Assembly: GCA_039794345.1 (NCBI GenBank)
Contig: JBDIVQ010000002.1
Coordinates: 6,558-70,557, forward strand
Direction: 5' to 3'
Length of the DNA stretch: 64,000 bases
Source: Phycisphaerae bacterium
Lineage (GTDB): Bacteria > Planctomycetota > Phycisphaerae > Phycisphaerales > UBA5793
A program made the translations under genes and the position numbers. Positions 25,197-63,500 of the stretch are shown here, in pieces; position 1 is the stretch's first letter, and every line of letters begins with the position of its first letter. The notes beneath the pieces were generated by a model. That model had not been told where the DNA came from. It did no database searches and saw nothing but the letters and a program-made list of their open reading frames with translations.

Positions 25197-25199
25197 CGA

Positions 25200-26876: not shown

Positions 26877-26918
26877 GGTGGTGGTCCCTTCCCGCGTGGT
26901 CGCGGTTGGTGGTGCGTT

Positions 26919-30423: not shown

Positions 30424-30511
30424 GGGACTAATCCTCTTGCAATCCCGCACAAAACCCGTTACACTCACCCAGCCTGCTTTTCACTTGCGCTGGCCCGCAA
30501 GGAGAGACGCC

Positions 30512-33525: not shown

Positions 33526-33726
33526 ATGGCTGAGTCCGACATCGAGCAGGCGATCAAACAGAGCGCCCAAGGCCCCGCCAAAGCGCAAGGCGACTCGGGC
33601 AGCGTCGAGCAGCACGGCCTCGCGGAGCAGATCGAGGCGGACCGCTACCTCGAGAGCAAGAAGGCGAGCCGGGGCAAGGGGCTGAATGTGAAGTTCGTGC
33701 AACTGGAGCCGCCGGGTACGGCGTGA
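33526..33726 (+). CDS. small head-module protein preceding the portal
   Basis: MAESDIEQAIKQSAQGPAKAQGDSGSVEQHGLAEQIEADRYLESKKASRGKGLNVKFVQLEPPGTA. Very high third-position GC. Overlaps the portal start. Confidence 0.55.
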   Translation: MAESDIEQAIKQSAQGPAKAQGDSGSVEQHGLAEQIEADRYLESKKASRGKGLNVKFVQLEPPGTA

Positions 33727-46360: not shown

Positions 46361-47158
46361 TCAGGCTCGAGCAAGCACTCCGCTCTCGCGCAAACCCTCA
46401 AAGTAGGAAACGAGCCGCTCCACATGTGGCCGATAACTGACGAGAATACCCGCTTCGATGTTGCGGTGCTGTGCCGCGTCCGTGAAGTTCGCTGACGTGA
46501 TGAGCGCGACTGTTCGATCGACCACGATGCACTTTGCATGGAGGCTCGCCCTAACATGCGAGGCGGGCAGGAGCGAACGAACGTCGTAGTGAAGGGCCGG
46601 GCGTGGAGTCCAGGGCCATTGCCGGGCAAAGAAGTCTTCCGTGAATCGCTGGACAATCTGCTCCGGGAGTGAAGTGTCCGTTGGCCGCCGCGGAATGTCA
46701 AGGCAGAACCAGACCCGAAGGCTTGGATGCTCTGCAACCCGTTCTGCGAGGCGTTTGAAGAGTTCACCGCCTCCGTGCACTGCGTATCCGACGAGAAGCA
46801 CCTCTGTGTGAGCACCGACAAAGAGTTCATTCATCACCGCAAACGTATCGCGCGTTGCGACTCCGTCAACGTGAGGTCCGGATAGCACGAGCTCAAACAG
46901 TGAATCGGGAGCGTCGGTCGCTTCTCGTGTGGTCGCCACATGCTCGAACAGCGTGGCGATCTGTTCAAGTGACCAGCCAGATCTCGATAGCCCTTGGATA
47001 AAGTCCTCTGCGTGCTTCTGCCCAGAGGTGCCGAGCACCTGTCTCAGGGTGTGCGCAGGGACTGCGCCCGACGGCAATGATTGACGGCACAGCGCCGCCA
47101 GCTGCCTGAGGCTCGCAGGTGTGGTGGCTTTGATGAGAGAGATGCCATCGGGGGTCAC
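46361..47158 (-). CDS. drmC: DISARM DrmC, PLD-family nuclease
   Basis: HAKCIVVDRTVALITSANFTDAA is the HxK(x)4D PLD motif. The GTG start has a GTGA overlap with drmB. Confidence 0.85.
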   Translation of the reverse strand: MTPDGISLIKATTPASLRQLAALCRQSLPSGAVPAHTLRQVLGTSGQKHAEDFIQGLSRSGWSLEQIATLFEHVATTREATDAPDSLFELVLSGPHVDGVATRDTFAVMNELFVGAHTEVLLVGYAVHGGGELFKRLAERVAEHPSLRVWFCLDIPRRPTDTSLPEQIVQRFTEDFFARQWPWTPRPALHYDVRSLLPASHVRASLHAKCIVVDRTVALITSANFTDAAQHRNIEAGILVSYRPHVERLVSYFEGLRESGVLARA

Positions 47159-48945
47159 GTGAAGAACTCCGCGTTCAGCAACTCGACCGTAGGTACCACC
47201 AGAGCTCTGTCGAGAAAGTCATTGTGCTGCTCACAGCACGTCTCGGCGATCAGTACGCACCCATGACAGGCGCTTCCCTGCAAGGGCTGGTGGTCGTGTC
47301 GATCAGGCACATGGAACGCGCACACAGGATCGTTAGAGCACAGGCGTGCTTGATCGAGCGCTCGCTTCATGTGGTGCTTGATGCGACGGCCAGCGGCCAC
47401 AAGTCCACCGAGTGTTCCCTCTGCATCGCTCGATCCAGTGTACAGGAGGATACCGTACTGGCCGGCGCTAGGGCGGCAATAGATGCGCTCGCGCAACGAA
47501 GACGACGGATACCCGCATTCTAGTGAGATGGCGGTGATTAGGAGGTGGGCCAAAGTGTGGAGCATGAAGTAAGTGGTGCCCGGAAACACCCGTGTACTCC
47601 CCTCGTGTTCGTCGAGCCACACCTTGAACCCGACCTGGAGCGCGCGGTCCCTCTGCTGAACAGGATCTCGATAAGTCCATTCGGCTATCGCGGCGGGGTT
47701 GAACTGGAGAAAGATACCCTCGCCACGATTTTCGATCGCGGGCAGCCATGAAGTGTCAATGGCAAGGGGCGCTCGTTGGACATCGATCGACAGCTCGCCG
47801 TCGATGTCTGGACCGGCGGCCTCGAATCTCGTGAAGCCCACCTGTGCGACGACCTCGCGCAGCCGGTGCACGAGCACAACCCGATCAATGCCTTGCATCT
47901 GCGGGGAGTGCCACGCAGCCACTGGGAGCGTGCGTGCGTAGAAATCGCCTTCTGGTTGATCAGACCCGAGTTCATCGCGAGTAGTGCTCAGGGCCTCGAA
48001 CTCCGCCTCCTTGACTGGTCGGGTGTCGGAAGCCTGCCCCTCACGGATCCGTCGTATCGCCGCCATGATGTCGTCTTCAGCAAACTCCTTCAGTTGCGCG
48101 GAAACGAGCGGCTTCCTGAGCTCGTATCTCAGCTCCTCGATGGACTCGACGGCGGCTAGGTGAGCATCCCACAGTGTCCGCACCGCCTCGTCCACCGTCG
48201 CGTGTGCCTCAGGAATGGAGATGACGGCCAACAACTGAGGAAAGTAGGCGTTGCTCGCGCTCCTGATGAGCAAGCGGCTTGGAACCCCGCAGCGCTCCTT
48301 CGTGAGCGGACCAAGCCAGGGGCGTGACCCGTCGCAGCTACCAAGAGCCTTCAGGTCGCGTTGAGCGGCTTGAGCCATCCGACGTTCCGCGCCGCATCCA
48401 CACCGCACCCAGACAGAATCGAGGTCGCCGGTCGTGCCTCGCTCTTCGAGATACATCTCGCGTGCACAGGCATCCCCTTCGCCATGAACGAAGGCGCGCC
48501 AGTCGATGTCTCCAACATGGCCTCGCTCGCAAGCGCGGACGAAGCGCACCGGGACGACGGACTGCTTCTTGCCGTCACTGTCCGTACAGCGCCCCTTTTC
48601 AAGATCATTCCACTTGACGAGTCGCCGCGCACGATGGCCCCGGGGTGTCATCTCCGCCTTCTGTACAATGAACCACTCAGGAAAGCGGTAAGTGGTAATG
48701 TCGGGCGTAAACCCTTTGTCCTCTATCGCGGGAGGCGGCTTACGAAGCGTCAATCCCTGTACCTGCAGCAACTCCTCGAGCTTGTGGACCAGTCGTGGCT
48801 CTGAGATCGTGGGCAGAGCTGTGTTCCTGCTGTATCGCCATCCTTCGAGGCCGCCGATAATGACGGCGTGGTCCGGTAAGTCCACCATGGCCCCCGGACC
48901 GAATGTGGTGATGAGCTGGCTGGAGCGGATTTGGGGCTTCGCCAT
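47155..48945 (-). CDS. drmB: DISARM DrmB, DUF1998 protein
   Basis: 596 aa. C-terminal Cys cluster ...QGSACHGCVLIAETCCEQHNDFLDRALVV typical of DUF1998/MrfA zinc-binding domains. TAATG overlap with drmA. Confidence 0.8.
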   Translation of the reverse strand: MAKPQIRSSQLITTFGPGAMVDLPDHAVIIGGLEGWRYSRNTALPTISEPRLVHKLEELLQVQGLTLRKPPPAIEDKGFTPDITTYRFPEWFIVQKAEMTPRGHRARRLVKWNDLEKGRCTDSDGKKQSVVPVRFVRACERGHVGDIDWRAFVHGEGDACAREMYLEERGTTGDLDSVWVRCGCGAERRMAQAAQRDLKALGSCDGSRPWLGPLTKERCGVPSRLLIRSASNAYFPQLLAVISIPEAHATVDEAVRTLWDAHLAAVESIEELRYELRKPLVSAQLKEFAEDDIMAAIRRIREGQASDTRPVKEAEFEALSTTRDELGSDQPEGDFYARTLPVAAWHSPQMQGIDRVVLVHRLREVVAQVGFTRFEAAGPDIDGELSIDVQRAPLAIDTSWLPAIENRGEGIFLQFNPAAIAEWTYRDPVQQRDRALQVGFKVWLDEHEGSTRVFPGTTYFMLHTLAHLLITAISLECGYPSSSLRERIYCRPSAGQYGILLYTGSSDAEGTLGGLVAAGRRIKHHMKRALDQARLCSNDPVCAFHVPDRHDHQPLQGSACHGCVLIAETCCEQHNDFLDRALVVPTVELLNAEFFT

Positions 48946-51900
48946 TACTCATCCCCCCAATCCCTCAAGCCCTTAACGATCAGGTCTACATTGGCCTCGA
49001 CATCTCGCATTGAGCGATTGGCGCGAAATCGCTGGTGGATTGGGGGCAAGCTATCCAGGTCTGGGTCAAGGAAGTCGTAGATGAGGCGCCGGAATGACCC
49101 GGCCTGCTCCTTCTGGTATTGCATTCGTGCACCCTCATACTGAGCGCGATCGGCGAGCCGCACCCAGTCGTCGAGAAGCTGCTGGCAGCGGTCGAGCACC
49201 TTGGTGGCGAGTTGGTTCGCGTCCGCGGGGGAGAGCTCACCGTCATGCGCTCTGGCTCGTTCTGCGATCCGAATCGCGAATGCATCGAGCTGAGAGCGTA
49301 CCGCCAGCACGGCCTGTGCGCCCGCAGCGGGAGTCAGCGTAGCGTTGCCCTGCCTGCAAAGGCCGATCAGGGCAGCGGCAAGGGCTCGATCCAACGCTCG
49401 CGGGGAGAACGGCGTGACACTCGTCGCCTCCACGCTCCGGTAGAATGTCTCATGGAACGCTGTGAATCGCTCGTAGTGCGATCGATCGCGGGGCTTGTGG
49501 ATGTTGAGAAGAGCGGCCACGAGTCCGGGCCTCTCCGGATCACGACCCACTCGGCTGGTGGCTTGGATGTACTCGGCACTGGTCTTGGGCTGGCCGAGCA
49601 CGACCATGAGGCCGAGGCGAATGATGTCTAGGCCGACCGAGATCATGTTGGTCGCCAGAGCGACATCGACATGCTCGTCGCTCCTGAATGGCAGCGCGAG
49701 GCGGCGTTTGGCCTCGGCAACCTTGTCGGTGGATACACGGGAGGTCAGCTCCACAACCTCGTAGTCAATGGTCCTGTCGGCGAAGAGCCGATCCTCCGGT
49801 TCGCGACGGCGTCGGCGACCGTACTCAATGAGCCGAGTACGAACCTCGTCCTCAATGATGCGACGGCTTCCACCCAACTCGCGGAGGGAGTTAAAGTACC
49901 CTAGCACGGTCATGTATGGGTCGGCCGGATTGGCCGGGTTCTGATTCCCGCCTGCTCGCATCCACGCATCCTGTGCTGCGCTCAAGAGCGCGAGCACCGC
50001 ACGGAGCATGACGACCTTGAGGCTGCGGCCCTGGGCAGCGATGCCGATGTATTCACGCGCGGGACTCTCTGTGGCGGGCAATGTTTCGGCGAAGAACGAG
50101 TCCTTTCGATCGGGCCCTGGGCAGGGGAAGACCTTTGTCCGCAAGTAGCCGAAGAGCGCTCGGATCTGGCTGTCCGCACGGCGCACGGTGGCCGTGCTGG
50201 CGATGATCTTGGGCGGCAGAGTAAGGCCGTCGACCTCTAGGCTCGCGAGCGCACCGATCGCGCTTTCGTAGAGGCCCGCGATGGTCCCGAGCGGGCCCGA
50301 GATCAGGTGCAATTCGTCCTGGATGATGAGGTCGGGCGGGAGGAGTGCTCCACTCGGCAAGGGCGTTCCCTTGCCGGGGTCACAGGGTCCGTAGAAGCCA
50401 TTCGCGTCGTATCGGTTCACCTTGCCAAACAGCGTGCCGGTGTGTCCGGTCCACGGTAATGCCGCGAACTTGTCGACGGTCGCGATGATGAAACACGGGA
50501 GGCGACGGTACAACGGCTCGTCGATCGCGACGATCGGAAGGTATCGGTCACCAGTAAACGGGCATCGGTGGTTCGCGCAGTGCACAAGGAGATCTGTTGG
50601 TGCCCTCAGGTTGGGTGACAATCGGAAGGAGTTGCGCGTGAACTTCGTACCGCACCATGGGCACTCTTCGAGTGGAATCGGGGAAGGCTGCCGGTCATCC
50701 TTGAGGAACCGCGTGGTCTTGGTGTAGGCCGTGTACTCTCGATGAGAGCTTTTGTCGCCCTGGTGGCCCATTCGGTTCGGTGTTGCCGCCTGGCCAACCC
50801 AAAGCCCGATCTCGAATGGCCACTCTCCCAGCGCTGGCTTGTTCGCCTCGCGCTCGAATTCCAGTGCGCAGATCAGTGCCGCAGCGCGACCGAGCTGGTC
50901 GAGCGTGAGCAGCCGCAGCGTGTACCGCATCAGCACACTTACACCCGCGCCTTGGATTCCGGGGTTGCGCAATCGACGAAGCACGAGCGTGAATGCGGCC
51001 AGACCCAGATATGCCTCGGTCTTGCCACCGCCGGTGGGAAAGAACAGGAGGTCCACAACCGCCCGGTCGTCATGCCGCGGGTCAACGATGCCGGGAAGCG
51101 TCATCAGGATGAACGCGATCTGAAACGGGTGCCACTTCGGGGCCGTCACCTTGTCCGGCGTTGAACTCTGCTGGATGGCGAAGCGTTGTCTCGCGGCCCG
51201 TGCCATGGCACGGTTGGCAGTAGCGAACGCCTGCAGGACCTGAGGATCCTTAAGTAGTGCGATTCCTGCCTCGATGCGATCCGATGCGATGCGCGCTTCC
51301 GCGAGCATGTCCTGTGCCGTCTGTCGATGGGCGCGTGACAGTGAGGTCAAGACCGTTTGCTGCTGCGCGATCCACGCCCTGTAGTGAGTCACCAGCGGGC
51401 TCAGTTTGGAGGCGGCGTCGGCTGCGTTCGTCAGGCTGCCGAGCGATTCCATGCCAAGCTCGACATCGAGAATCGCCGCCGGAGCGACACGTTCAACCTG
51501 CGCCGTGGGGATCCATGTCGTCCGAACCGTCCGGCAAGTCTGCTCTGTCTTGACTTCCTCTGCTGAGACGCCGTGCCCAACGGCGTACTCATACGCATCG
51601 CGATACTGGAGATCCGCGATGCGGTGGTCCCATTCGTCGGCGACATCGCTGCCGCGAGGGTCCGGCCGTGGCACAAATCCGGGGCTGCAGTGGAGCGTCA
51701 ATCGCACCTGGAACACGAACGCCTTGTACGCCGGTTCGGTCTGACTGCGGAAGTTGACGACAAAGATCGATACTGCCCTCGTCGCGGCGGGCAAGCCGGC
51801 GACACCCGCATCTCTGCTTGTCACGATGAGCCGGATTCCTCCGCTGCCCGGAACATCTACGTCTGCGGGCCTCGAACCCGGCGGCGGAATGGGCACAGCA

Positions 51901-52460
51901 ATGGTGTGCGACTGCGGCGTCCGACGCCAGCCCTTCTTCGCCGGCTTGCCTGCCTCTTCCGCATCGACGGCCGACTCGCCCGCGAGTTCGCCGGCCCCTG
52001 GGCCGAGGCTCCGTTGCGCCGCGGCATCATCGCCTTCGCCGGCCGCGGGCTCGCCTTTCCCCTCCGGATCCTCGAAGGCGTAGTCGCCCCAGTCGATATC
52101 CGCCTTGATCGAATCGACCCTGCCGGGGACGAGCACACTGAGCCCCATGGAACTGGGCAGGAGACTGCGGCGGGCCGCTGACTTCTCGGGATCGGCGCCA
52201 TCATCCAGACCGCCTGGCTCTGCGGGTGAGTCAATCTCCTCCGTCGAGGTCGCGTCGAATCGCTGGACGACATCCGCGGACGCGGGCGTGAGGAAACCAG
52301 TGAGATACCACCGCGTGGGCGGTTCCGGCAGCAACTCGTTGGCGAACGCGTGGTCGTTCGTCGGTCCGACGAGATCAAGGCGAAGTGCCTCGACCAGCGT
52401 CGATCGCACCTCGACACTCGTTGCAGGCAGTTGCGTCTCACTCGGCTGTAGATTCCCCAT
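48945..52460 (-). CDS. drmA: DISARM DrmA, DEAD/DEAH-type helicase
   Basis: Motif I (LLFFPTGGGKTEAYLGLAAF) and motif II (LIIQDELHLISGPLG). C-terminal helicase motifs (ATNMISVGLDIIRLGLMVV, QATSRVGR). 1171 aa. Confidence 0.85.
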   Translation of the reverse strand: MGNLQPSETQLPATSVEVRSTLVEALRLDLVGPTNDHAFANELLPEPPTRWYLTGFLTPASADVVQRFDATSTEEIDSPAEPGGLDDGADPEKSAARRSLLPSSMGLSVLVPGRVDSIKADIDWGDYAFEDPEGKGEPAAGEGDDAAAQRSLGPGAGELAGESAVDAEEAGKPAKKGWRRTPQSHTIAVPIPPPGSRPADVDVPGSGGIRLIVTSRDAGVAGLPAATRAVSIFVVNFRSQTEPAYKAFVFQVRLTLHCSPGFVPRPDPRGSDVADEWDHRIADLQYRDAYEYAVGHGVSAEEVKTEQTCRTVRTTWIPTAQVERVAPAAILDVELGMESLGSLTNAADAASKLSPLVTHYRAWIAQQQTVLTSLSRAHRQTAQDMLAEARIASDRIEAGIALLKDPQVLQAFATANRAMARAARQRFAIQQSSTPDKVTAPKWHPFQIAFILMTLPGIVDPRHDDRAVVDLLFFPTGGGKTEAYLGLAAFTLVLRRLRNPGIQGAGVSVLMRYTLRLLTLDQLGRAAALICALEFEREANKPALGEWPFEIGLWVGQAATPNRMGHQGDKSSHREYTAYTKTTRFLKDDRQPSPIPLEECPWCGTKFTRNSFRLSPNLRAPTDLLVHCANHRCPFTGDRYLPIVAIDEPLYRRLPCFIIATVDKFAALPWTGHTGTLFGKVNRYDANGFYGPCDPGKGTPLPSGALLPPDLIIQDELHLISGPLGTIAGLYESAIGALASLEVDGLTLPPKIIASTATVRRADSQIRALFGYLRTKVFPCPGPDRKDSFFAETLPATESPAREYIGIAAQGRSLKVVMLRAVLALLSAAQDAWMRAGGNQNPANPADPYMTVLGYFNSLRELGGSRRIIEDEVRTRLIEYGRRRRREPEDRLFADRTIDYEVVELTSRVSTDKVAEAKRRLALPFRSDEHVDVALATNMISVGLDIIRLGLMVVLGQPKTSAEYIQATSRVGRDPERPGLVAALLNIHKPRDRSHYERFTAFHETFYRSVEATSVTPFSPRALDRALAAALIGLCRQGNATLTPAAGAQAVLAVRSQLDAFAIRIAERARAHDGELSPADANQLATKVLDRCQQLLDDWVRLADRAQYEGARMQYQKEQAGSFRRLIYDFLDPDLDSLPPIHQRFRANRSMRDVEANVDLIVKGLRDWGDE

Positions 52461-52475: not shown

Positions 52476-52655
52476 TCAGTCCTTCTTGACCACAACCGCT
52501 TTGCCACCGAGAAGCTTCTGCTTCCACACAGGCCACTGCTCAACCTGTGCGCTTGCCTTCTTCAAGTGCGTCACAAGGGCTGCCCGGGATTGCTGCACTT
52601 TGACAGCCTGCTGGCATTTACCCTTGGGGTCACTGGTCTGAATCCGTGTGGTCAT
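52476..52655 (-). CDS. 59-aa lysine-rich protein overlapping the deaminase 3' end
   Basis: ATG 52655 is preceded by AGGAGG embedded in the deaminase coding sequence. MTTRIQTSDPKGKCQQAVKVQQSRAALVTHLKKASAQVEQWPVWKQKLLGGKAVVVKKD. The stop lies 15 nt before the drmA start. Confidence 0.5.
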   Translation of the reverse strand: MTTRIQTSDPKGKCQQAVKVQQSRAALVTHLKKASAQVEQWPVWKQKLLGGKAVVVKKD

Positions 52656-54147
52656 TGTGCTCCTCCTGACGGGCTTTATCAAACATGTTACTGGCGATCA
52701 GCTCGAGGTCCAAGTACGATGCAGGCAGCATTTGGAGCCTCAAAGTGCCGTTCTCTGGCCTCCACTTCAGAGCTGCCCCATCCAGATTCTTTCGGTTGAG
52801 ACGCCTCCCAGAGCCCAATCTGAGCGAGAACAGGTCGAAGAACCGACGCGGGCCGACGCCGACGAACGGCTCAAAGTGTACGCGCTCGACATCGCCCTCG
52901 GATGCTTCAGCTGACAGCCCGATACAGATCGAGTCCTGGTGAAACTCGCCTGCCTTCGACTTCACATACGGCTCGATGAAGACCACTCGTTCAATACCAG
53001 CTGCCACAATGTGCTTTGCACAGTTGTGACATGGAAAGGTGGTCGAGTACAGCGTCCCGCCCGAAACGGGGATGCCTGCTCGTGCGCATGCGAGCAGCGC
53101 ATCCATCTCAGCATGAACGACTCGGCCGTACTCAGTCAGATCGCGAATCCGACTTTCCTCCAGTACGGTTCGCACCTTCTCGGCTTCGAGACCATGCTCC
53201 GCACTTCGGGAGACGATGTCATCGATGATCCGGTTCTGCTCGACCTTGTTCGAATCACTCCCCCTCGCGAAGTCCCGGCCGTCGCTCGGAAAGCCAACGT
53301 CTTCAGGCATCTTGTCCGTCGCCGGCCAGTACTGACCGCCGAGAGCCTTCGGGCAGTCATTCGCGCCCGTTGCCACAACCTGCTCACCCACATTGATCAC
53401 TGCACCAACCTGCGGCGACAAATCCGCTGATCGCAACGACGCAGCGAACGCCAGGAACATGCAGAATTCATCTAGCGTCGGCGTCACGTACGGATGGCCA
53501 AACAGCAGCGCCAGCAGTCGCCAGATACTTCGCTTCAGCCGATCTTCGTCACCATCAATACGAAGGAAGAAATCAGATAGGTGAAATGTATCCGTCACAC
53601 GCTGACCATGGTCAAGATGCTCATCAGCATCACGTTCGATCAGTTTCTTCGCATTCTCTTCTGAAAGCCGCTTGTCGCTCTTCAGGTATTCCAGTCGCCG
53701 CTGTTCATTGGCGTGAACGCCCACCAGGTAGAACCCCTGCGGGTAGATAGCCCGAAGCCGCTCCACCTCCTCTGGGTGCTTGAGTGAACTCACGATGTAA
53801 GCGCGCTTGGGGCGAGGCTCCGCCTTGCCATCCTCGCCTTCCGCTCGGCCCTTACTGATGACGCTCGCAACTCCCAATGCCAGAATGGAGTTGTCCCCTG
53901 AGTTGAGCCTCGCTTCATTGCCTGCATCCATCAACGAGGAGATGCGTTGGAATTCATCGTTCTCGTCCCACTTCTCGGGCTCGACAAGAAGTGGGATGAT
54001 GTGTTCCGTGACTCGAATGAGTTCGACGTCGTAGCCGATGATTTTCAGGCGATTCTCAAGCGCATCGCGCACCTTGCCAAGTTCTGTCCCCACAGCACCG
54101 ATCAATCCAATGACCAGTTCCGACTCTGCATAGGCGTCTTCAAGCAT
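52630..54147 (-). CDS. AvcD-like antiphage deoxycytidylate deaminase (N-terminal kinase-like domain plus a dCMP/dCTP deaminase domain)
   Basis: Zinc deaminase motifs HAEMDALLACARAG and PCHNCAKHIVAAGIERVVF, plus SPQVGAVI. N-terminal LVIGLIGAVGTELGKV is a P-loop-like start. 505 aa. Confidence 0.8.
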   Translation of the reverse strand: MLEDAYAESELVIGLIGAVGTELGKVRDALENRLKIIGYDVELIRVTEHIIPLLVEPEKWDENDEFQRISSLMDAGNEARLNSGDNSILALGVASVISKGRAEGEDGKAEPRPKRAYIVSSLKHPEEVERLRAIYPQGFYLVGVHANEQRRLEYLKSDKRLSEENAKKLIERDADEHLDHGQRVTDTFHLSDFFLRIDGDEDRLKRSIWRLLALLFGHPYVTPTLDEFCMFLAFAASLRSADLSPQVGAVINVGEQVVATGANDCPKALGGQYWPATDKMPEDVGFPSDGRDFARGSDSNKVEQNRIIDDIVSRSAEHGLEAEKVRTVLEESRIRDLTEYGRVVHAEMDALLACARAGIPVSGGTLYSTTFPCHNCAKHIVAAGIERVVFIEPYVKSKAGEFHQDSICIGLSAEASEGDVERVHFEPFVGVGPRRFFDLFSLRLGSGRRLNRKNLDGAALKWRPENGTLRLQMLPASYLDLELIASNMFDKARQEEHNDHTDSDQ

Positions 54148-54216: not shown

Positions 54217-56127
54217 TCACAGTTCAACCCCCAGCAGCAAGTCGTCTGACGGAACGCGAGCAAGCTCCACCCGGATCAAGTCTGGCGGAATGTCCGTCTC
54301 TTGCGGCCTTGTTGTCGTGCTCACGATCAGCTGGAACACCGGCGACGAAGTCTGATGCCAGGCAGCGAGCCGGCGCATCAGCCGGTTGAAGATCCCAATC
54401 TCCATGTCGGCCTCGCGAGGGCTGTCGAGGATCATCATTCGGGGGTGATGCCCATATCCATCCATGGCCGATTGAAGCGCCGCAAGGTCAAGGCTCAGAA
54501 CGAGCGCCGACGTGGAGGTCGCTTCCCCAGGGGCACCTGTCCGGCCCACGATGTTGAGGCGGATGGCCTTTGACTCCATCGACAACTCGAAGCGACGGCT
54601 CGCGCCGACAAGCTCTTCGCATAGTGCGGCAAACCGCTTTGGCAGCCAAGCCCGCGTGGTGGCCAGCGACTCGCGAAGCTGACTCTGCTTCTCGCGCGAC
54701 TGATTGATCTGGGTGGTCAGTTCATCGTGCTCGCTCATGGCCCGCGGCAGGCGCGACGTTCGCTGAATATGCCGCTCAACTCGCTGATCCATCGCGCGAT
54801 GAAGAGCAATCCGTCCATCGATGCCGGCCGTGAGGGTGGAGAGGCCCACCTCAGCCTGCCGCAGTTCGGATCGCCGCGCCGTCAGATCGGCGCTGAGTTT
54901 CGGCGTTGTCGCTCGCAACTCCTGTTGCCGCGCCTTGATCTGCTCAAGCTCCCCCTCCAGGTCGGCCACGCCGTCCAAGTCCGGGCTGGGTACCTGCTGT
55001 CGAGCGATCTTCAACTTCGCGGGGCAGTCGTCTGTCTGCAGGTCGCAGAGTGCCGCGAACTGCTCGTACACGGTCCGAGGTCGCTCTCGCCGCCTATTGA
55101 TATGTACAGTCACTGCGTGGGCCCGAGCGGCAAGTGACCTCTCCTCAGCGGTAGCGTCCGCCAGTGACTGGAATGCACGCTCGTAGCTCGCGCGAATGGT
55201 GGCGAGGCCCAGCTTCTTGACTTCCTCCTCGCGAAGAGCGAGCAGTCTCTGCGTCCGTTGCCGTATCAACTCCTGCTCAAGTTGCGAGATGCCGACCGCG
55301 TTCGATTCAAGCAGGGCCTGAAGATCGTTCGTAACCGCTGACTCCTCCGCGCCAATCTGCCGTTCCAGGCTCTTCACCTCGTCGGCCAGGGTCTGCCGCC
55401 GCTGGAGTAAGTCGTCATGCTCCTCGAAGAGCACCTTCTCGCGGTTGTCCATCAACCCGCACACAGAGCGCAGGACGATTGATGCGTCCTCCTTGTCCAG
55501 CACGTGCGTCCCTGAATCGGTCTCCACATGCCGCCACACGAGCGGATGCGCATAACGACACTTCTGATCCCTCGCGATCCAGGCGAGCACATCGAGCCAC
55601 TCGATTGGCCGGCGGGCGTGTGTCAGCAGCGGTGAGGTGACGGGCTCCAGCACTGCGTCACCCAAGCGCCGAAGGAATTCGGCGTAGGCGTCTTCCGGCT
55701 GTTCAGCATCCAGGAGCTCTCGCCACTCGCTCACTCGCGCGGCTCGGGCAACGAGCGTGGAGGGAGCGCCCAGAGGCCGGAGCACTGCCCAACCCTCTCC
55801 GCCTACACGAAACTCGCCGACGACAACACTGTCCGGCAATGCCCGACGGATGGCGACTCGGGTTTGGCTGTCCGCGTATCGAGCTTCGCCGAGAAGGTAG
55901 CGAATCAAACGGGTCAGAAGCGTCTTGCCGACATCATGGCCGAGCGCCTCAACCGCATCGGGTGCTGGTTGCCGCGTGACGATGAGGTTCAGGCCCAGCT
56001 CGAACGGGATCTCGCGGATGATGTCAACAGGCTCGACTTGCCGGAGCAGCACGAGCCGCCGGATCCACACCGGGGGCTCGGACGTGACCGCCGCTGGCGG
56101 AGGATCAGGGAACAATGTATTGGACAT
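54217..56127 (-). CDS. coiled-coil ABC/SMC-like ATPase (DUF3732/ABC-3C-like)
   Basis: N-terminal FELGLNLIVT...LGHDVGKTLLTRLIRYLLG (degenerate Walker A). About 300 aa of central heptad-rich coiled coil. C-terminal TSTSALVLSLDLAALQ...HPRMMILDSPREADME (signature-like, Walker B, D-loop). A strong GGAGG precedes the start, which overlaps the drmMI end by 23 nt. Confidence 0.65.
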   Translation of the reverse strand: MSNTLFPDPPPAAVTSEPPVWIRRLVLLRQVEPVDIIREIPFELGLNLIVTRQPAPDAVEALGHDVGKTLLTRLIRYLLGEARYADSQTRVAIRRALPDSVVVGEFRVGGEGWAVLRPLGAPSTLVARAARVSEWRELLDAEQPEDAYAEFLRRLGDAVLEPVTSPLLTHARRPIEWLDVLAWIARDQKCRYAHPLVWRHVETDSGTHVLDKEDASIVLRSVCGLMDNREKVLFEEHDDLLQRRQTLADEVKSLERQIGAEESAVTNDLQALLESNAVGISQLEQELIRQRTQRLLALREEEVKKLGLATIRASYERAFQSLADATAEERSLAARAHAVTVHINRRRERPRTVYEQFAALCDLQTDDCPAKLKIARQQVPSPDLDGVADLEGELEQIKARQQELRATTPKLSADLTARRSELRQAEVGLSTLTAGIDGRIALHRAMDQRVERHIQRTSRLPRAMSEHDELTTQINQSREKQSQLRESLATTRAWLPKRFAALCEELVGASRRFELSMESKAIRLNIVGRTGAPGEATSTSALVLSLDLAALQSAMDGYGHHPRMMILDSPREADMEIGIFNRLMRRLAAWHQTSSPVFQLIVSTTTRPQETDIPPDLIRVELARVPSDDLLLGVEL

Positions 56128-59100
56128 CGTCCACCTCCACCGGCCAGGCGCGCTTCAGTGCTTCGCCTTCCCTGAACAGCGCTGCCGCCTCCTTCGCCAT
56201 GTCCGCGTGCTCTGGTTTCGTGAGCGTGATGCGTTGATCGGTTCGGGTCACGACTCCGCCGTCCGAAAGCGTCGCGTAGCCCATTGCCGTGAGCGACTGC
56301 CAGAGCTGTTTGAGCGACCCCAGGGGATCCTGCGTGCTGTTGGCTGCCGTGGCGCTGCCATCCGCGTACAACTCGCGAGCTCGCTGGTTTACCGCCAGAA
56401 TGAACATCCGCTCGGCTGCGACCTGCCGGACTCGCGCGGGCGCGAGTTCGTCAAGGATCGCCACCATCAGCTCGACGGCCTCCAGCATCGGAACCGGCTC
56501 GACTTCGAACCCGCCTGCTGGCGCCTTGAACAGGTCTGGGACGGACGCCGCGACTTTCTTACGACCCCGCTTCGCTGCCTTCGGTTTCTTCTCCGCCGCC
56601 TCCGCGGCCAGGCCTGTTCGGCGTTCCTCCTCGGCGCGCTGCTTGTTCAGTTCCAGCAGGCGGGCGAGGACCTCGTCGCGGGTCTCCTCGGGCCAGCGGC
56701 AGCGCCAGGCGAGGCGCTTGCGGGACGGTGGCAGCTTGGCGGCGAACGCCAGGGCCTCGGCCGCGGTGGGCCACCAGAGTTGCTCGGGGACTTCGAGGTC
56801 CGGCGGCAGGTCGTCATCCTCGATGTCGAGGTAGTCGAGGCCGAAGCCGCAGACGGGGTGGATGTCGGTCCAGTCGTAGGCGTCGAGCACGGCGCGGTCC
56901 ATGGCATCGTGCAACTCGCGCAGCTTGAGGATGTCCGCGTCGCCCTCGGCCGGGTCGTGGAAGCGGTTGTAGGTCGCGGTGAGCCCCTCGTTGTTGCGGA
57001 CCATCAGATCGGCACGAAACTCGTAGTACGCCTGGCCCGCCGCCTCCATCCGCGGATTCGTCTCGAAGCCCGCGGGGAGTGGGTAGGTCTCAAAGCAGTC
57101 TGTCGGGGTGTAGCGGAGATCGTCTTTCATGGACGAGGCAAAGAACCGTGCCCACGCTTCGTGAGGCTGGCACTGCAACGTGCAAAACGCCCCCCATGCG
57201 TCAAACGCCAGAACCACGAGCGTATTGGCGAACACCATGGCAGGCGGAAGCATCGCAAAACTCATGTGCGGCGTCGCGCCGCAGTTGATGACGAGCACTC
57301 GAGGGAGGCCGACGATGGCGGCGTAGAGTTCGCCACGAGGACGCAGGTAGAGCCACCAGTTCTCCTTACCCCACTTGTCTTTCTGGGCCAGCCTTTCGGG
57401 CTTGACCCGTTCCTCTACAAGAGCCAACAACTCAGGCCAGCGACGATGAACCTCTGCCTTGCTCAACAAGCCAAAGTTGATCGCATAGCGGCTGTGCGCC
57501 AGTGATGGATCGTTGTTGACTTCCTCTCCGCCGATGTATGGATAGATCGCGTGCTGGTTGTCAGGACGTGCCCTAATCAGAGCTTCCATCTCCGTCAGAG
57601 AAGAAGCAGCACCGCGGCCGCCCAGGCCGTCGAAGGTGAAGCCCATGCCCAAGATAATGACGCCTTGAAAACTCTTCCCCGCGTTTGCTTGCAGGACTTC
57701 GGGGTTGTCGTGAGTGCCGGCGTGGAAAAGATACGCAGAGATCATCGGCACGGGCCGTCCATCGAGTTCGAACGGGCCGGGTAGCTCACCCTTGTGTATG
57801 TGGACGACGCTGACCACGACGGCGGCCTGCCCGGGCCACTTGTAGCGGCGCCGGGCGGCGTAAATCGTGCCACCATGCGTGCAGATCCAACGCAGCCCGG
57901 TAGTGCGGGTATCGCCCTGACCGATGGTGTTGGTCGCGATGAGCCCGAAGCACCCGCACGGGCGGAGCAGGTTGAACCCGCGCCGGAAGAAGTGGGCTAC
58001 GAGATCGGCGTTTCCATGTGCTTCTTCATGCAGTGCCTGCAACCAGTCCAGGTAGTGCTCGCGGTTGCTATTGATCAGCGTGTTCTTGCCTGCAAAGGGT
58101 GGATTGCCGACGATCGCATCGAACCCCGAATCATCGCGGCCGAACACTTCGGGGAACTCGATTTCCCAGTGAAACGGCGCCACCGGTTGCTGACCACCGC
58201 GCAAGTGGCTAAGGGTTGCCTGAATGTTGGTGAAAGCCTTCGCATCGGTCCGCTGCTTCCAAGCCGCGAGCAGGCCGAGGTACTCGTCGCGCGTCTCCTT
58301 CCGCTCCCTGGGCTTGGACCCGTCGAAGAACGACGCGACGCACAGGTCGCCCGCGAGCCGCGCCGGCTCCAGCGCCTCATCCGCGACGGCCAACTTCTGC
58401 GCCTTGTTCGCAGGCGGCATGTCATCGCCCGCGGCGAGGATCTGGCGGCGTTCTCGCAACGCCCTGTCCATCTGCTCCGCGAGCTTGCCCTGCACAAAAG
58501 TCGGCTCGCCCGTGCCCTCCAGGTTGAAGTGGGCGATCTGCTTGCGCGTCAGGCCCACGAGCGAATCGCCCGTGCGAAGCGAGTGGTCGAGGAAGGTGAA
58601 CGGGTGGTCCTTGGCGAGCGTGGCCAGCCAGAGGGAGAGTTTGGCGAGGTCGGTCGCCATCGGGTTCTTATCGACGCCGTAGAGGCAGCGCTGGGCGATG
58701 AGGCGGCGGGCGTAGAGCAGTTCATCCTCATCGGCGGGGATGCGCGGCTTGTAGCCGTGGTGCGCCCACGAGGCGACGAGCTGATCCGCGAGTTGGCGGC
58801 AGGCCTCGACGAGGAACGCGCCCGAGCCCATGGCCGGGTCGCAGACCTTCAGGTCGAGGATCTGGTCGGGCTCGGGGTGCTCGCCGAGTTGCTTGAGGAT
58901 CGGCTCCAAGGCCTTGCGGACGATCGGCTCGGTGAGCGAGCGCGGTGTGTAGTGCGAGCCGGTCTTGCGGCGCTCGTCGGTCGGGACCAGCACCATCGTG
59001 CCAGCAGATACCGGCTGCGGCGTGGCGTTGCGGGCGATGCGGCGTTCGAGCGCGGCGAGCAAATCATCGATGGCGGCGGCATCCTTCACGGCCGCGGTCA

Positions 59101-60556
59101 TGGTGCTGGTGAGCTTGTAGTCGGTTTGGTCCTGGATGGCCTTGGCGCGGTCGGCGGGCTTGGTCTTGAGGAGTTCATCGAGGTCGACCGGCACGGGGGC
59201 ACCGTGAGCCTTGGCGGCCTTGAGGGCGATGGTGGCGCCGGTGGCCCGCTCCAGGCGGAAGCCCATCATGGTCTCGTAGACCGAGCCGATCTGCTCGACA
59301 TCGAGCGTGCGGTAGGAGAGCCGCTGGCCGTCGAGCAGGAGGAGCTTGCGGAGGACGCGCTCGATGGTGCCGTCGGGCACGAGGGGGAGCTTCTTGTCGG
59401 GGAGCGTCTGCCCTTCGAGGAACGGGTAGCGGTCGGGGTCGAAGAGGTGCCCCTCGCGGGCTGGCATTGCAAGGAGCGGGTGCTGGCACCCGAAGAAGAC
59501 GGCGCGGCAGAGGGCGATGATCTGCGGCCACGCGCCGTAGCGGTGGTCCATCGTGTCGGGGTTCTGCTCCGCATCGGTGCGGAGCCGCTCGAAGAGGCCG
59601 TGGATGGAGTAGTTGCGGACGTAGAGGTCGGAGGTGGGCATCAGGCCGCGGTCTTCGGCGTAGAGCAGGAAGACGAGGCGCATGAGGACGGTGAGCAGGC
59701 CCTGGTAGATGGAGTCCGGCTGGTCTTTGAGGACGGACATGAGCAGCTCGGCGTGGGCGCGCTCATCGGCGGCCTGAAAGCCGCGGAGGAGTTCGTAGAG
59801 GGCGTCGAGGACCTGTTGGGCGAGGGTGTTGGAGACGCGGGCCTGGTAGTCCCGGCTGCGCTTGAGGAGCGCGGGGAGGCGCGCTTCGGTGGGTGCCGAG
59901 AGCAGGCGCTCGCGGCTAAGGAGCATCTCGAAGGCCGCGACGATGGGGCGACCCGCGGTCTCGACCATGGCCGCGACGGGGAAGGTGACTGTGCCAGTGT
60001 TCTCGCCGCGGGGCGCGTAGACGAGGCGGAAGTGCGTCGGTGTGGTGAGCAGACCGATGGACACCTCGGCCTCGCGGAGGAGACGCTCGAAGCGGCGGGT
60101 GTGGGAAGCGGTCCAGCCGGAGAGTTCGGAGTCGCGCTGGGCGTCGAGGTCCGTGCCGAGCGGGAGTTCCTGGATGAGAAGCATCCACGGGCGTTCGGGG
60201 TCGGCGGGCTTGGGCGGGACGAAGGCGTAGGTGGGTTCGAGGGTTTCGCCGAACTCCTTGAGCGGGATCTTCAGGGCCTCGGGGATGGGGTGCTCAGGCG
60301 TGGCGCCGATGATGCAGTCGTCGGGCCACTCAAGGAACTCTCGGAGGATGCCGAGTGTCGAGCGGATGATGGGGTAGGGCTTCTCGCGGTCGCCGGCTTC
60401 GGTGACCCGTTCAAGAAAGCGTTGCTGCAAAGGGGCGGCGTTGCGATTGGTCGCCACCTGTGCATCGGCGAGCGCAGCCGGCGACACGACCAGGCCATCG
60501 GGCTGGAGGTACCCGATCCACGTCTGGTGGTCGCGGATGATGGGGTCAACCGCCAT
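56105..60556 (-). CDS. drmMI: DISARM DrmMI, large N6-adenine DNA methyltransferase
   Basis: HYTPRSLTEPIV, motif I (VCDPAMGSGAFLVEA) and motif IV (AIVGNPPFAG). 1483 aa. TGATG overlap with drmD. Confidence 0.85.
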   Translation of the reverse strand: MAVDPIIRDHQTWIGYLQPDGLVVSPAALADAQVATNRNAAPLQQRFLERVTEAGDREKPYPIIRSTLGILREFLEWPDDCIIGATPEHPIPEALKIPLKEFGETLEPTYAFVPPKPADPERPWMLLIQELPLGTDLDAQRDSELSGWTASHTRRFERLLREAEVSIGLLTTPTHFRLVYAPRGENTGTVTFPVAAMVETAGRPIVAAFEMLLSRERLLSAPTEARLPALLKRSRDYQARVSNTLAQQVLDALYELLRGFQAADERAHAELLMSVLKDQPDSIYQGLLTVLMRLVFLLYAEDRGLMPTSDLYVRNYSIHGLFERLRTDAEQNPDTMDHRYGAWPQIIALCRAVFFGCQHPLLAMPAREGHLFDPDRYPFLEGQTLPDKKLPLVPDGTIERVLRKLLLLDGQRLSYRTLDVEQIGSVYETMMGFRLERATGATIALKAAKAHGAPVPVDLDELLKTKPADRAKAIQDQTDYKLTSTMTAAVKDAAAIDDLLAALERRIARNATPQPVSAGTMVLVPTDERRKTGSHYTPRSLTEPIVRKALEPILKQLGEHPEPDQILDLKVCDPAMGSGAFLVEACRQLADQLVASWAHHGYKPRIPADEDELLYARRLIAQRCLYGVDKNPMATDLAKLSLWLATLAKDHPFTFLDHSLRTGDSLVGLTRKQIAHFNLEGTGEPTFVQGKLAEQMDRALRERRQILAAGDDMPPANKAQKLAVADEALEPARLAGDLCVASFFDGSKPRERKETRDEYLGLLAAWKQRTDAKAFTNIQATLSHLRGGQQPVAPFHWEIEFPEVFGRDDSGFDAIVGNPPFAGKNTLINSNREHYLDWLQALHEEAHGNADLVAHFFRRGFNLLRPCGCFGLIATNTIGQGDTRTTGLRWICTHGGTIYAARRRYKWPGQAAVVVSVVHIHKGELPGPFELDGRPVPMISAYLFHAGTHDNPEVLQANAGKSFQGVIILGMGFTFDGLGGRGAASSLTEMEALIRARPDNQHAIYPYIGGEEVNNDPSLAHSRYAINFGLLSKAEVHRRWPELLALVEERVKPERLAQKDKWGKENWWLYLRPRGELYAAIVGLPRVLVINCGATPHMSFAMLPPAMVFANTLVVLAFDAWGAFCTLQCQPHEAWARFFASSMKDDLRYTPTDCFETYPLPAGFETNPRMEAAGQAYYEFRADLMVRNNEGLTATYNRFHDPAEGDADILKLRELHDAMDRAVLDAYDWTDIHPVCGFGLDYLDIEDDDLPPDLEVPEQLWWPTAAEALAFAAKLPPSRKRLAWRCRWPEETRDEVLARLLELNKQRAEEERRTGLAAEAAEKKPKAAKRGRKKVAASVPDLFKAPAGGFEVEPVPMLEAVELMVAILDELAPARVRQVAAERMFILAVNQRARELYADGSATAANSTQDPLGSLKQLWQSLTAMGYATLSDGGVVTRTDQRITLTKPEHADMAKEAAALFREGEALKRAWPVEVDDVQYIVP

Positions 60557-63500
60557 CAGGCGCCCTCCGGGATGAGGTAGACGATGCCCAGGGGCTCGAT
60601 GCGGGCTGACGCAACGGTGTAGAAGCTCACGATGCGTGCGGGCTCTCGCTCCAGGTCGTCCTCCACGTTGTCAATCCATCGCTGCCAGTAGCGGCGATTG
60701 GACTCGTAGGTGCGCTTCTCATCGTCTGTCGTGAAGAGTTTGAGCTGGGAGTCGGCTGACTTGCCAAGTTCGGACTCGATGCGCTTCTTCTGGTCTTCGA
60801 GGATCCGGCGCATCTCCTTGGACTCGGCCTCGCCGCGTTCCTGGAGTTTCGCCTCGGCTTCGGCGCGGGCGGCGTCGCCGCGGCCCTGGATGAAGGGGAG
60901 GAGTTCGTCGAGGTCGCGGGGGAGGGAGGCGAGGTATCTCGCCGCGGCGACTTCGGGCAGGCCGCGTTGCGCACCGGGCTTCAACGCGGTGGTGAGCAGC
61001 TCGACCGTGCGGGCTTCGGCTTCGCGGGCGTACGGCTTGAGAGGTTCGTGCCGGGCTGAAGGGTCTTGCCAACGGGCGGTGACGGTGAGCACTTCTTCGT
61101 GAAGGCGGCTGGCGCCTGGGCCATAGAGCGAGAGCCGTCCGAGGAGCACGACTCGGGGCACATTGTCAGAACTCTGCGCGATGCACGCGCGCGAAAGGTC
61201 GTGGTGCACGAACCCTTGGGCAAGGAAGCGGCCGAGGAGCCGCTGCGCGATGCGATGTTGCAGGTGGACCTGGACGATGCTGTCGTCGATGCCCTTGGGC
61301 GGCTCGAAGACGATCGGCCTGATCGGGGCTTCGCGACGCCAGGAGAAGTCGCGCTTGCCGTTCTCGGGAAGGCTTCTGAGCGTGTCGAGCGTGGGCGCCC
61401 AGGTCGGGTCGCCGCCCTTCTTCGCGTCGAGCCGGGGGAAGATGTAGCGGCCGGAGCCCGGGGGGTCCTCGACGAGCGGCTCGGCCTTGTTGATCTCCAG
61501 CGCGCACGAGAGGGCGTCGCGGAAGGATTCTTCGTCGAACGCGATCCACTTGCGAGCGTCATCGACTCGTCGGTCGAGGCCCGCGATCTGCTCGCGAAGG
61601 TCATCCTGTCGGAGCCGTGCTGCTTCGAGTTCCTCTTCCGTTGTCGCCTGCTTCTCCGGGTCGAGACTGGCGCTGTCGATCGCCCCGGCCATTCGGGCGG
61701 CGTCGGCATGGCGGATGCCGTGCTTGAGCGTGTCAGCGAGCCGCGATTCGAGCACCTGCGAGAGACTCCCGAGTTCCTCGCGGATGGTCTTCGTCTTCCG
61801 CACGAGGGCCTGGAGGACGCGGTCCTCCGGTCGCTGGAGGTAGACGAAGTAGTGGCAGTACACATTGTCAGAGGGCTGTAGCTTCCGGTCGATGCGGCCG
61901 TTGCGCTGCTCAAGGCGGCTGGGGTTCCACGGTACGTCAATGTGGAACAGGTTGTGGCAGTGGGCCTGGAGGTTGAGACCCTCGCGAGCGGCATCGGTGG
62001 CGATCAGAATCCGCACGGGGTGCTCGTCGGGCGGGGCGTTGAAGGCACGCTTGATCTGCTCGCGCTTGTTCGGCGGGGTAGGGCCGTGAAACACTTCAAT
62101 GCGCTCATCTGCTCGGTCGGTGCCGGCGACCGCCGCGCGCAGACAATTGAGGACGTACCGCTTCGTATCCTCGTACTCGGTGAAGAGGATGACGCGGAGG
62201 TCCGTCCACCCTGCACCTCGCGACGGCTCACGCTCGCCGGGCAGGCGGAGCCCGGCACACATCTTCTCTCGCATCCACTGGATCAGGTGCCGGATGCGTG
62301 CATCCGGCAGGCCGCGTTGCTGCTCGGCGATCTGCTCCATGCGTTCGAGAAGTTGCTTCTCGCGATTACGGTCCGCACGGGTCTGGTCGCCGGTCGTGGC
62401 TTCGGTGGCGGCCTCGAACTGGTTGTCTTCCAGGGCTGAGAACTCTTCCTCGGTCAGTGCGGCCCGGTCGTCGTCGCTGTCGATGCCGCTACCAAGAAGG
62501 TCGGCGTCCTCGGCTGCAGCACTGCGGTCGGAAGCGGCGGGGAGTGAAGCCTGTTCTCGCTCCCAGATACGCTCCATCGTCTTGCGGTGGACCCGGAGCG
62601 TCTTCGCGAACGCCTCGACCGAGGAAAGCAGCCGCTGCTGAAGCCCGGAGATCAGAAGCCCTGCGGCGGCCTGCTTGCGCTTGCTCTCTCCCTCAACCCG
62701 TCGTGCGCGAACCTCGCGGTATTCGTTGAGAAAGCGGGAGAGTTCGAGTTCGGGTGCATCCTCGGGCAAGCCCTTGATGTCAACCTGCACGACATGCCGT
62801 TCGGGAAAGCCCCCGGCGACGGTGCGCAGGTCATCCTTGAGGCGGCGGACCATCACGTCGTCGAGGTTGCTCTTGAGCACTTTGACGCCGCGGCAGAATC
62901 GTTGCGAGTCGAGGATCTCCAGCAGGGCGCTGAAGCTGTTCGAGTGGCCATTGTGAGGCGTCGCCGAGAGGAATAGTCGATGTTCGAAGCGTGGGGCAAG
63001 GTCTCGAATGGCACGAGTGATTCGTGAATCGATGGCGTACTTCGCACCGCTGGATGGCGCGGCATGGTGGGCTTCGTCGAGAATCAGCATCGATCCCGGA
63101 CGCAGATTGTCGAGCCAGTCGCGTAGCGGGGCGGCGTACGTTTCGTCGATCAGCAGGCGGTGGGACACGAGAAACCGTGGAAAAGTCGTCCACGGGTTGA
63201 CCCCGAATCCTCGCTCCTCGCGCACACGCTCGACATACTCACGGTCGAGGATCTCGAACACCAGTCCGAAACGAGCCTCCAGCTCATCCTTCCACTGCGG
63301 CAGCATGGAGGGCGGGCAGGCGACAACGATGTCCCGGATGCGCTTGCGGAGCAGCAACTCCATCGCGATGAGGCCCGCCTCAATGGTCTTCCCCAGGCCA
63401 ACGTCGTCGGCGATGAATATGTTGACGCGAGGAAGCCGGAGGGCCTTCCGCAGCGGTTCGAGCTGGTACGCGTCGATTCGGATTCCTGCACGGAAGGGAG

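Follow-up and report, generated by a model that had tools for sequence, protein, structure and literature searches.

The 64,000-nt stretch of DNA analyzed here (the window; contig JBDIVQ010000002.1 of the Phycisphaerae bacterium assembly GCA_039794345.1, forward-strand positions 6,558 to 70,557) carries on its minus strand a complete DISARM operon of class 1 and, within it, two extra genes, one of which is the subject of this report. This gene, here called X, encodes a 636-amino-acid (aa) protein; the other extra gene encodes a dCTP deaminase. The operon was recognized with PADLOC, Pfam, and NCBIfam, and brings together drmD, drmMI, drmA, drmB, and drmC, the set by which class 1 DISARM is defined. 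X is the third gene in the order DrmD, DrmMI, X, deaminase, DrmA, DrmB, DrmC:

60556-63924, minus strand: DrmD, SNF2-type helicase, 1122 aa (PADLOC DrmD, 1041 bits; Pfam SNF2-rel_dom and Helicase_C)
56105-60556, minus strand: DrmMI, PglX/MmeI-like N6-adenine methylase, 1483 aa, with a target-recognition domain and a C-terminal domain, XAD, defined below (PADLOC DrmMI, 1313 bits; Pfam Eco57I, MmeI_Mtase, N6_Mtase, and MmeI_TRD)
54217-56127, minus strand: gene X, predicted LmuB/YydD-like SMC-family ABC ATPase, 636 aa (open reading frame, AlphaFold2, Foldseek, PADLOC LmuB)
52630-54147, minus strand: AvcD-type anti-phage dCTP deaminase, 505 aa, embedded in the operon (NCBIfam NF041025, 5.5e-140, 467 bits; PADLOC dCTPase, 6.9e-164)
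48945-52460, minus strand: DrmA (PADLOC DrmA, 940 bits; Pfam matches across DrmA, DrmB, and DrmC are Helicase_C, MZB, and PLDc_2)
47155-48945, minus strand: DrmB (PADLOC DrmB, 285 bits)
46361-47158, minus strand: DrmC, PLD nuclease (PADLOC DrmC, 193 bits)

Although it sits inside a DISARM operon, X is no defined DISARM component. It is a real gene and no chance open reading frame (ORF), because it has 44 close relatives, 1681 related proteins at E<1e-3 (703 of them at E<1e-30) in a profile search of 1.84 billion cluster representatives (50% identity), and 188 family loci in GTDB species genomes. The best 150 of the 1681 matches are mostly ~640-680 aa long, and relatives of X can be aligned end to end. 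Loci with X occur in Planctomycetota, Verrucomicrobiota, Acidobacteriota, Myxococcota, Pseudomonadota, Spirochaetota, and other phyla, the nearest relatives being those of Planctomycetota and Phycisphaerae; X was not found in phage records or in IMG/VR viral contigs. The 636 codons run uninterrupted on the minus strand; read on the plus strand, the frame contains many stops. A first-pass annotation, made by a model from the letters and a list of ORFs, had described a 636-aa ORF and quoted a series of motifs from it with the strand left unstated; the ORF and all of the quoted peptides are present in the translation (GHDVGKT, residues 63-69; LQRRQTLADEVKSLERQIGAEE; LEGELEQIKARQQELRATTPKL; ILDSP, 566-570; EADM, 572-575).

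X starts inside drmMI, with its ATG at 56127-56125 and the DrmMI stop codon (TGA, 56107-56105) ending 23 nt further downstream, in the following arrangement:

56105-56138, minus strand: DrmMI/X junction, with GGAGG 6 nt upstream of the X start and the X ATG 23 nt inside the DrmMI end (read from the sequence; the overlap is kept in distant homologues)

Overlaps of 17-29 nt with the upstream methylase are also seen in X homologues that are only ~30% identical. From the sequence we reasonably infer that X is translationally coupled to drmMI. The first-pass annotation had proposed the same, and both the recurrent overlap and the C-terminal domain of DrmMI, which accompanies the ATPase family, speak for it.

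An AlphaFold2 model of X (alignment of 30 homologues) has a pLDDT of 89.1 and consists of an N-terminal beta-rich ABC half-head with the P-loop, two long antiparallel helices, a short apex, and a C-terminal half-head. Compared with the PDB by Foldseek, this model matches Bacillus subtilis YydD best (4.8e-18), together with four independent LmuB structures (1.6e-15 to 2.3e-10, including 9uxh_F at 1.6e-15, 9hqu_B at 3.8e-13, and 9nyg_B at 1.5e-11), followed by SMC heads, Rad50, Smc5/6, MukB, and JetC. The PADLOC LmuB profile also detects X, with an E-value of 2.9e-14 over X residues 65-614 and model positions 34-587 of 610, and at E<=0.01 the PADLOC scan of X returns LmuB models, weak JetC matches, and no other. 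Pfam and NCBIfam searches with X gave nothing meaningful above noise, and comparison with the sequences of PDB chains (HMMER, with a single sequence and with a profile) gave coiled-coil noise only, the solved LmuB not being detectable by this route. On its modeled fold and profile match, X is an SMC/Rad50-like ABC ATPase of the Lamassu LmuB/YydD type. The first-pass annotation had anticipated much of this, having described a split ABC/SMC architecture resembling Rad50 and the ATPases of conflict systems such as Lamassu, with no fused effector domain. The Foldseek comparison recovers the SMC/Rad50-type head and coiled-coil topology, the YydD, LmuB, and PADLOC matches agree with the proposed resemblance, and the AlphaFold model contains head and coiled coil only. 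Other assignments were considered and rejected. Membership of X among DrmE (of DISARM class 2), BrxC, PrrC, or RloC was rejected on the PADLOC scan, which at its threshold yields only LmuB and JetC models. The Hma system combines a SNF2 helicase, an m5C methyltransferase, and the HmaC ATPase (PMC8565338); the methylase in the window is instead N6-adenine PglX/MmeI-like, and X has no HmaC match.

Conservation of the motifs in X was counted in 256 family members. From the N to the C terminus, the features of the protein are as follows:

55921-55941, minus strand: deviant Walker A, G63-H-D-V-G-K-T69, consensus xGHxxGK[TS] (G67, K68, and [TS]69 100%; H64 99%)
55564-55572, minus strand: R186-D187-Q188 in a conserved W-[LI]-x-R-D-Q-x-C block (R186 253/256, D187 255/256, Q188 231/256)
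54610-55449, minus strand: antiparallel coiled coil, residues ~227-506, two arms of ~120 residues with a break near 273-281 (DSSP helices 227-272, 281-346, and 383-488/493-506)
55024-55047, minus strand: Cys361-x6-Cys368-Pro at the coiled-coil apex, in the loop between the arms of the model (C361 235/256, 92%; C368 254/256, 99%)
54406-54438, minus strand: Walker B and D-loop, M564-M-I-L-D568-S-P-R-E-A-D574 (D568 and P570 100%; E572 88%; D574 95%)
54310-54336, minus strand: H-loop/switch position, F598-Q-L-I-V-S-T-T-T606, consensus FQYIVTTTT (Q599 255/256, 99.6%; positions 603-606 Thr-rich)

The P-loop had been called degenerate in the first-pass annotation, which is true of the whole family: the first Gly of the Walker A pattern Gx4GK[ST] is replaced by V, I, S, or L. 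Judging from its position in the ABC head, the RDQ block is the probable Q-loop. The residue after the Walker B aspartate, Asp568, is Ser in 78% and Gly in 21% of relatives and not Glu (consensus hhh[HL]D[SG]PREAD), and the H-loop position has no conserved His. In short Lamassu, the LmuB Walker B reads hhhhD[Q/S/T/E] (PMC12663957), a pattern that the ILDS of X fits, and LmuB proteins with such a deviant Walker B retain ATP hydrolysis. The apical cysteine motif is hook-like, yet it is not a canonical CxxC; this pair may bind zinc and support dimerization.

With few exceptions, the gene that precedes X encodes a PglX/DrmMI-like methylase, a long type I HsdS, or a free protein of ~185 aa. In loci of the methylase type, a SNF2 helicase and usually a YprA-like helicase precede the methylase, the gene order that Bell et al. 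(2025) gave for ARMADA type I. Loci of the HsdS type have the operon HsdR-HsdM-(YhcG)-HsdS-X, in which HsdS is unusually long, and a few planctomycete loci consist of a three-gene operon of a ~155-aa GNAT-like protein, the free ~185-aa protein, and X. Homology (phmmer E down to 1e-14) links the free protein to the C-terminal ~130 aa of the methylases and long HsdS proteins found before X. We give the name XAD to this winged-helix-like domain of ~130-170 aa encoded immediately before X. The PADLOC DrmMI model reaches only to residue 1332, and the copy of XAD in the window lies past that point:

56117-56479, minus strand: XAD, the C-terminal ~120 aa of DrmMI (residues 1360-1480), immediately 5' of X (iterated hidden Markov model seeded by free-standing homologues, E 9e-25)

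XAD is present in 63 of the 68 resolvable genes upstream of X. Single linkage joins 65 of 69 upstream neighbors into one family, with hhalign probabilities between XAD subgroups of 99.9% and 95.8%; the direct hhalign comparison of two subgroups is weak (probability 10%), and these are joined via a bridging subgroup. Pairwise identities of X and XAD are correlated, with a Spearman coefficient of 0.79 overall and 0.66 where the XAD hosts are different proteins; for example, a locus with an HsdS host (L023) and one with a methylase host (L010) are 63% identical in both X and XAD. Because the correlation holds across host proteins, XAD and X move together as a cassette. ARMADA type I methylases that are followed by X carry XAD (Mesorhizobium AR02, E 2e-60; Caballeronia SBC1, 7e-57). 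In two ARMADA type I loci that have no X (Sphingomonas MM-1 pISP0 and Paracoccus marcusii), the methylases are shorter and XAD was not found, and a near-identical ARMADA helicase in Mesorhizobium loti belongs to a decayed, uninformative locus. Both types of operon, DISARM class 1 and ARMADA type I, contain X proteins that are 67-75% identical. XAD is the constant genomic partner of X, covalently joined to proteins that bear a target-recognition domain in three restriction-modification (R-M)-like systems. Taken alone, the combination of an LmuB/YydD-type fold and an XAD-X cassette is in our judgment highly likely to hold.

The AlphaFold2 model of XAD (DrmMI residues 1338-1483; pLDDT 76.9, core >90) has four helices, a beta-hairpin, and a final helix, an arrangement that is winged-helix-like. 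Winged-helix proteins dominate its weak Foldseek list, including MukE (TM score 0.42), LmuC twice (0.39; 9ny5_C, E 0.39), and JetB. Among 18 XAD sequences scanned with PADLOC, one matches a JetB/MukE-like model weakly (E 0.006) and none matches LmuC. The modeled resemblance of XAD to the MukE, JetB, and LmuC partner proteins is suggestive.

Two other arrangements of XAD were observed. Stand-alone operons of a GNAT-like protein (~155 aa), free XAD (~187 aa), and X (~648 aa), with no methylase adjacent, lie on Planctomycetota-type contigs (L086, 7537-10485; L089, 952-3888; also L020, L022, and L026); their Pfam GNAT matches are weak (E 0.0065 and 0.027), and they may represent a Lamassu-like system with an acetyltransferase effector. 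Further, in two type I R-M loci with X, a YhcG/DUF1016 PD-(D/E)xK nuclease lies between hsdM and the XAD-bearing hsdS (L037, 6792-7952; L018, 4194-5375).

We propose a cassette of two parts, in which X supplies the SMC-like ATPase and the XAD on the C terminus of DrmMI is its counterpart. X would fold like LmuB and YydD, with an ABC head and a coiled coil of ~17 nm, and would probably dimerize through the coiled coil and the apical Cys-x6-Cys hook. It would dock on the winged-helix-like XAD, which occupies the gene position of LmuC, in the way that LmuB binds LmuC, and the DNA-recognizing methylase of the DrmD-DrmMI module would thereby carry a Lamassu-type DNA sensor. By analogy with LmuB and Rad50, X may depend on ATP to bind DNA ends or abnormally structured DNA, and its signal could then steer or gate how the methylase-helicase module acts on the DNA of an invader, for example by favoring restriction by DrmABC over protective methylation. 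We consider the whole package, a Lamassu-type DNA sensor tethered via XAD to a methylase that bears the specificity, to have an even chance of being right. The gating step triggered by DNA ends is more tentative, and we regard it as possible but somewhat doubtful.

Several points weigh against this proposal. The physical contact between X and XAD is one that we infer, and sensing of DNA ends is carried over from Lamassu by analogy. The similarity of XAD to LmuC, MukE, and JetB in Foldseek is non-significant (best E 0.12, TM score about 0.4). The Walker A Gly, the Walker B Glu, and the H-loop His are all lost, and ATP hydrolysis could be weak or absent; the hook of X is Cx6C, not CxxC. There is no LmuA: PADLOC finds none in DrmMI or in the deaminase, and none is among the top families of the downstream neighbors of X in 58 loci. 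Finally, of 67 plasmid records that have an ARMADA-I-like helicase, only ~8 contain X, and most DISARM and ARMADA systems work without it, which makes X an accessory.

The attachment of X specifically to proteins with a target-recognition domain, in three kinds of R-M-like system, would also be expected if X were a guard. Tethered to DrmMI or HsdS, it would detect anti-restriction proteins (Ocr-type DNA mimics or methylase inhibitors) and trigger a backup response, as do PrrC and PARIS AriA. ABC ATPases are already known to be embedded in R-M or Hma systems, examples being PrrC, RloC, PARIS, and HEC-01 to HEC-04 (bioRxiv 10.1101/2024.01.29.577857), and in the stand-alone operons XAD-X is accompanied by a small GNAT-like protein, a possible toxin, although the GNAT assignment is weak. 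What tells against a guard is that no conserved toxic effector stands beside X in the fused contexts and that the closest structural relatives of X are sensors of DNA ends, not of inhibitors. The downstream neighbors in the 58 loci are heterogeneous: HNH_2 in 10, Peptidase_M78 and HTH_3 in 4 each, and ThsA, YhcG, and RES in 2 each, with single occurrences of GmrSD, Abi_C, Fic, Schlafen, and others. The HNH nuclease, the most frequent of these, was rejected as the effector of X because it also directly follows the methylase in the Sphingomonas ARMADA type I locus without X, which marks it as an ARMADA accessory. We consider the guard reading unlikely. As an observation in its own right, ARMADA type I-like operons repeatedly end with the gene of a ~260-aa HNH endonuclease, whether X stands before it or not (L099, 23083-23883; L096, 13946-14716); in the ARMADA paper (Bell et al. 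2025, PMC12458937), the main text does not describe an HNH gene as part of type I.

A non-sensing role is also conceivable, in which X is a clamp or tether that helps the methylase complex to scan DNA, for maintenance methylation of the host or for communication between sites, with no recognition of an invader. The SMC-like architecture and the tether to DNA-recognition subunits are compatible with such a helper, and degenerate ATPase motifs could suit a mainly structural role. However, K68, T69, and D568 are invariant in the 256 proteins, which argues that nucleotide binding matters, and the nearest relatives, LmuB and YydD, are defense sensors. The cassette is also patchy and mobile in the manner of defense accessories, being distributed over many phyla, plasmids, and several host systems. 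We regard this explanation as rather improbable.

The first-pass annotation had also linked X to the gene downstream, as a sensor of DNA ends or DNA structures that joins DISARM to the deaminase; as a sensor-effector pair, the two would tie DISARM to nucleotide depletion. The two genes are indeed same-strand neighbors, separated by 69 nt in which no terminator is predicted, and LmuB proteins are known to take many different effectors. Comparative context largely refutes the pairing, however, and we consider it very improbable. The deaminase follows X only in contigs L004 and L005, identical or near-identical copies of the window locus, and no deaminase family is among the 25 most frequent Pfam/PADLOC families listed for the 58 downstream neighbors. 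A 75%-identical X lies in a DISARM operon with two small genes in place of the deaminase (L093, 11959-13047); a 72%-identical X is followed, before DrmA, by IS21 transposase genes, GmrSD, an AAA_15/AAA_21 ATPase with a partner gene, and RelE-HTH (L092, 12093-21423); an X of 67% identity is the last gene of an ARMADA type I operon; and a 48%-identical homologue has another gene at this position. Further, the deaminase matches the single-gene NCBIfam equivalog for anti-phage dCTP deaminase, NF041025, over its whole length (residues 10-442, with its bit score above the cut-off of 400), the LmuA C-terminal domain is not detected in it, and in Lamassu the effector gene precedes lmuB, whereas here the deaminase follows X. 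The deaminase is a complete stand-alone defense gene embedded in the operon, with no conserved partnership with X, and the proposed link between DISARM and the deaminase through X does not stand. The stretch from X to DrmA has the look of an insertion site, or hot spot, for independent defense genes; embedding of defense genes in other defense operons has been published (bioRxiv 10.1101/2024.01.29.577857). The C-terminal tail of the deaminase (~60 aa, 443-505) lies outside the NF041025 model, and an Rfam scan of the window detected no AvcI-like RNA, only a tRNA.

A housekeeping SMC- or RecN-type chromosome protein placed beside DISARM by chance is suggested by the RefSeq product names of plasmid-borne homologues ("chromosome segregation protein SMC" or "DUF2326 domain-containing protein") but is refuted by membership tests and almost certainly wrong, as X scores 9.8 bits against TIGR02168 (SMC_prok_B; cut-off 567) and 9.3 against TIGR02169 (cut-off 729), its model lacks a hinge, it has 636 aa against about 1180 aa, and its gene is always inside defense operons with its start overlapping a methylase or HsdS gene.

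Several further observations concern the surroundings of the operon. A prophage-like block (11814-46208, plus strand) adjoins the DISARM operon and contains the following:

11814-13565, plus strand: large serine recombinase
17659-19923, plus strand: Prim-Pol plus AAA_25 primase-helicase
21868-23385, plus strand: ParB-N6/N4 methylase
27848-30232, plus strand: GpA-type terminase large subunit
33723-35231, plus strand: lambda-type portal
35185-37194, plus strand: capsid protein

DISARM may be cargo of this prophage-like element or simply its neighbor. The only Rfam match in the window, a tRNA gene at 2961-3033 (plus strand, 66.8 bits), could be the integration site of the mobile region. At E<=1e-5, Pfam matches nothing in two very long ORFs, 3452-8941 (plus strand, 1829 aa) and 23382-27707 (plus strand, 1441 aa), and the second lies within the prophage-like block with the ParB-methylase on one side and the terminase on the other. 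Between the terminase and portal genes, an unusual placement, 30437-32275 (plus strand) encodes a trypsin-like protease domain and eight Sel1 repeats. Past the end of the window and upstream of DrmD, contig L004, which is identical to the window, carries in its positions 1-1877 an nSTAND_NTPase7 protein (1049 aa) and a NucS_C-like protein on the opposite strand. These genes flank DISARM and suggest a larger defense island.

If our proposal is correct, an SMC sensor wired to the target-recognition subunit would offer a testable answer, for a subset of systems, to the questions of how DISARM, ARMADA, and BREX-like systems tell invader from host DNA beyond methylation and of how they avoid methylating phage DNA. 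It would also mean that a Lamassu sensor can be reused without its usual suicide effector. More broadly, a mobile cassette might make the specificity-bearing methyltransferases of DISARM class 1, ARMADA type I, and type I R-M read DNA ends or topology besides methylation, as a second self/non-self signal gating methylation versus restriction; we put this forward tentatively, with more doubt than confidence. It would couple SMC-based DNA sensing to epigenetic immunity, a coupling not previously described within the literature searched. Recognition of the XAD-X cassette would improve the annotation of many defense loci now labeled with SMC or DUF2326 names or as hypothetical.

Among known systems, Rad50/SbcC and the Wadjet JetC/MukB proteins have in common with X an SMC-family head, a coiled coil, and an apical cysteine motif. 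They differ in that X is much shorter, lacks a hinge, and is not accompanied by JetA or JetD, and its similarity to them scores weaker than that to LmuB and YydD. Rad50/SbcC is characterized by a CxxC zinc hook and an Mre11/SbcD partner, whereas X has C361-x6-C368-P at its apex and no such neighbor in the window. PrrC, RloC (which has a coiled-coil insert with a hook), and the Hma-embedded HEC-01 to HEC-04 are, like X, ABC ATPases nested in R-M-like loci, but X lacks a partner domain of the anticodon-nuclease, TOPRIM, NERD, or PIN kind and is linked to its host system via a domain fused to the methylase or HsdS.

In most loci outside the window, X follows the ARMADA type I trio of a YprA-like helicase, a BrxHII-like helicase, and a methylase resembling PglX (PMC12458937). 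One X-bearing plasmid, CP080530 of Mesorhizobium AR02, is in Table S1 of the ARMADA paper as a carrier of the ARMADA Type I helicase. Neither DISARM class 1 nor ARMADA type I as described includes an SMC-like gene or an XAD-type methylase C terminus; "SMC" is absent from the main text of the ARMADA paper (PMC12458937), and in the supplements searched the term occurs only within strain names and locus tags. In the literature searched, which did not cover the ABC-3C classification of Krishnan et al. (2020), no SMC- or LmuB-like protein was linked to DISARM, ARMADA, or type I R-M via a fused adaptor.

The closest comparison is with Lamassu. LmuB (of short Lamassu, or ABC-3C; DdmC of Vibrio cholerae) and B. 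subtilis YydD (DUF2326) have the fold and size of X, with a head split by a coiled coil of ~280 aa, and X falls within the description of short Lamassu LmuB as a split-head SMC/Rad50-like ATPase of ~550-700 aa. Published work has shown that LmuB dimers sense DNA ends. There are also differences: The partner of X is usually a domain fused to a PglX/DrmMI-like methylase or HsdS and not a free protein, the Walker A lacks its first Gly whereas published LmuB has the prototypical Gx4GK[ST] (PMC12663957), and the apex is Cx6C-P rather than CxxC. Because its locus lacks LmuA and its Walker A is non-prototypical, X should not be classed with the Lamassu systems. The effector gene of Lamassu lies before lmuB, whose proteins pair with many different effectors, and in type II, lmuC lies just before lmuB, with LmuC models resembling helix-turn-helix regulators and contacting LmuB and DNA (PMC12663957). 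X has directly upstream a small partner that is modeled as winged-helix-like and only weakly similar to LmuC, its Walker B Asp-Ser follows the short-Lamassu rule, and the stand-alone GNAT-like-XAD-X operons repeat the LmuA-LmuC-LmuB order. X probably works like LmuB.

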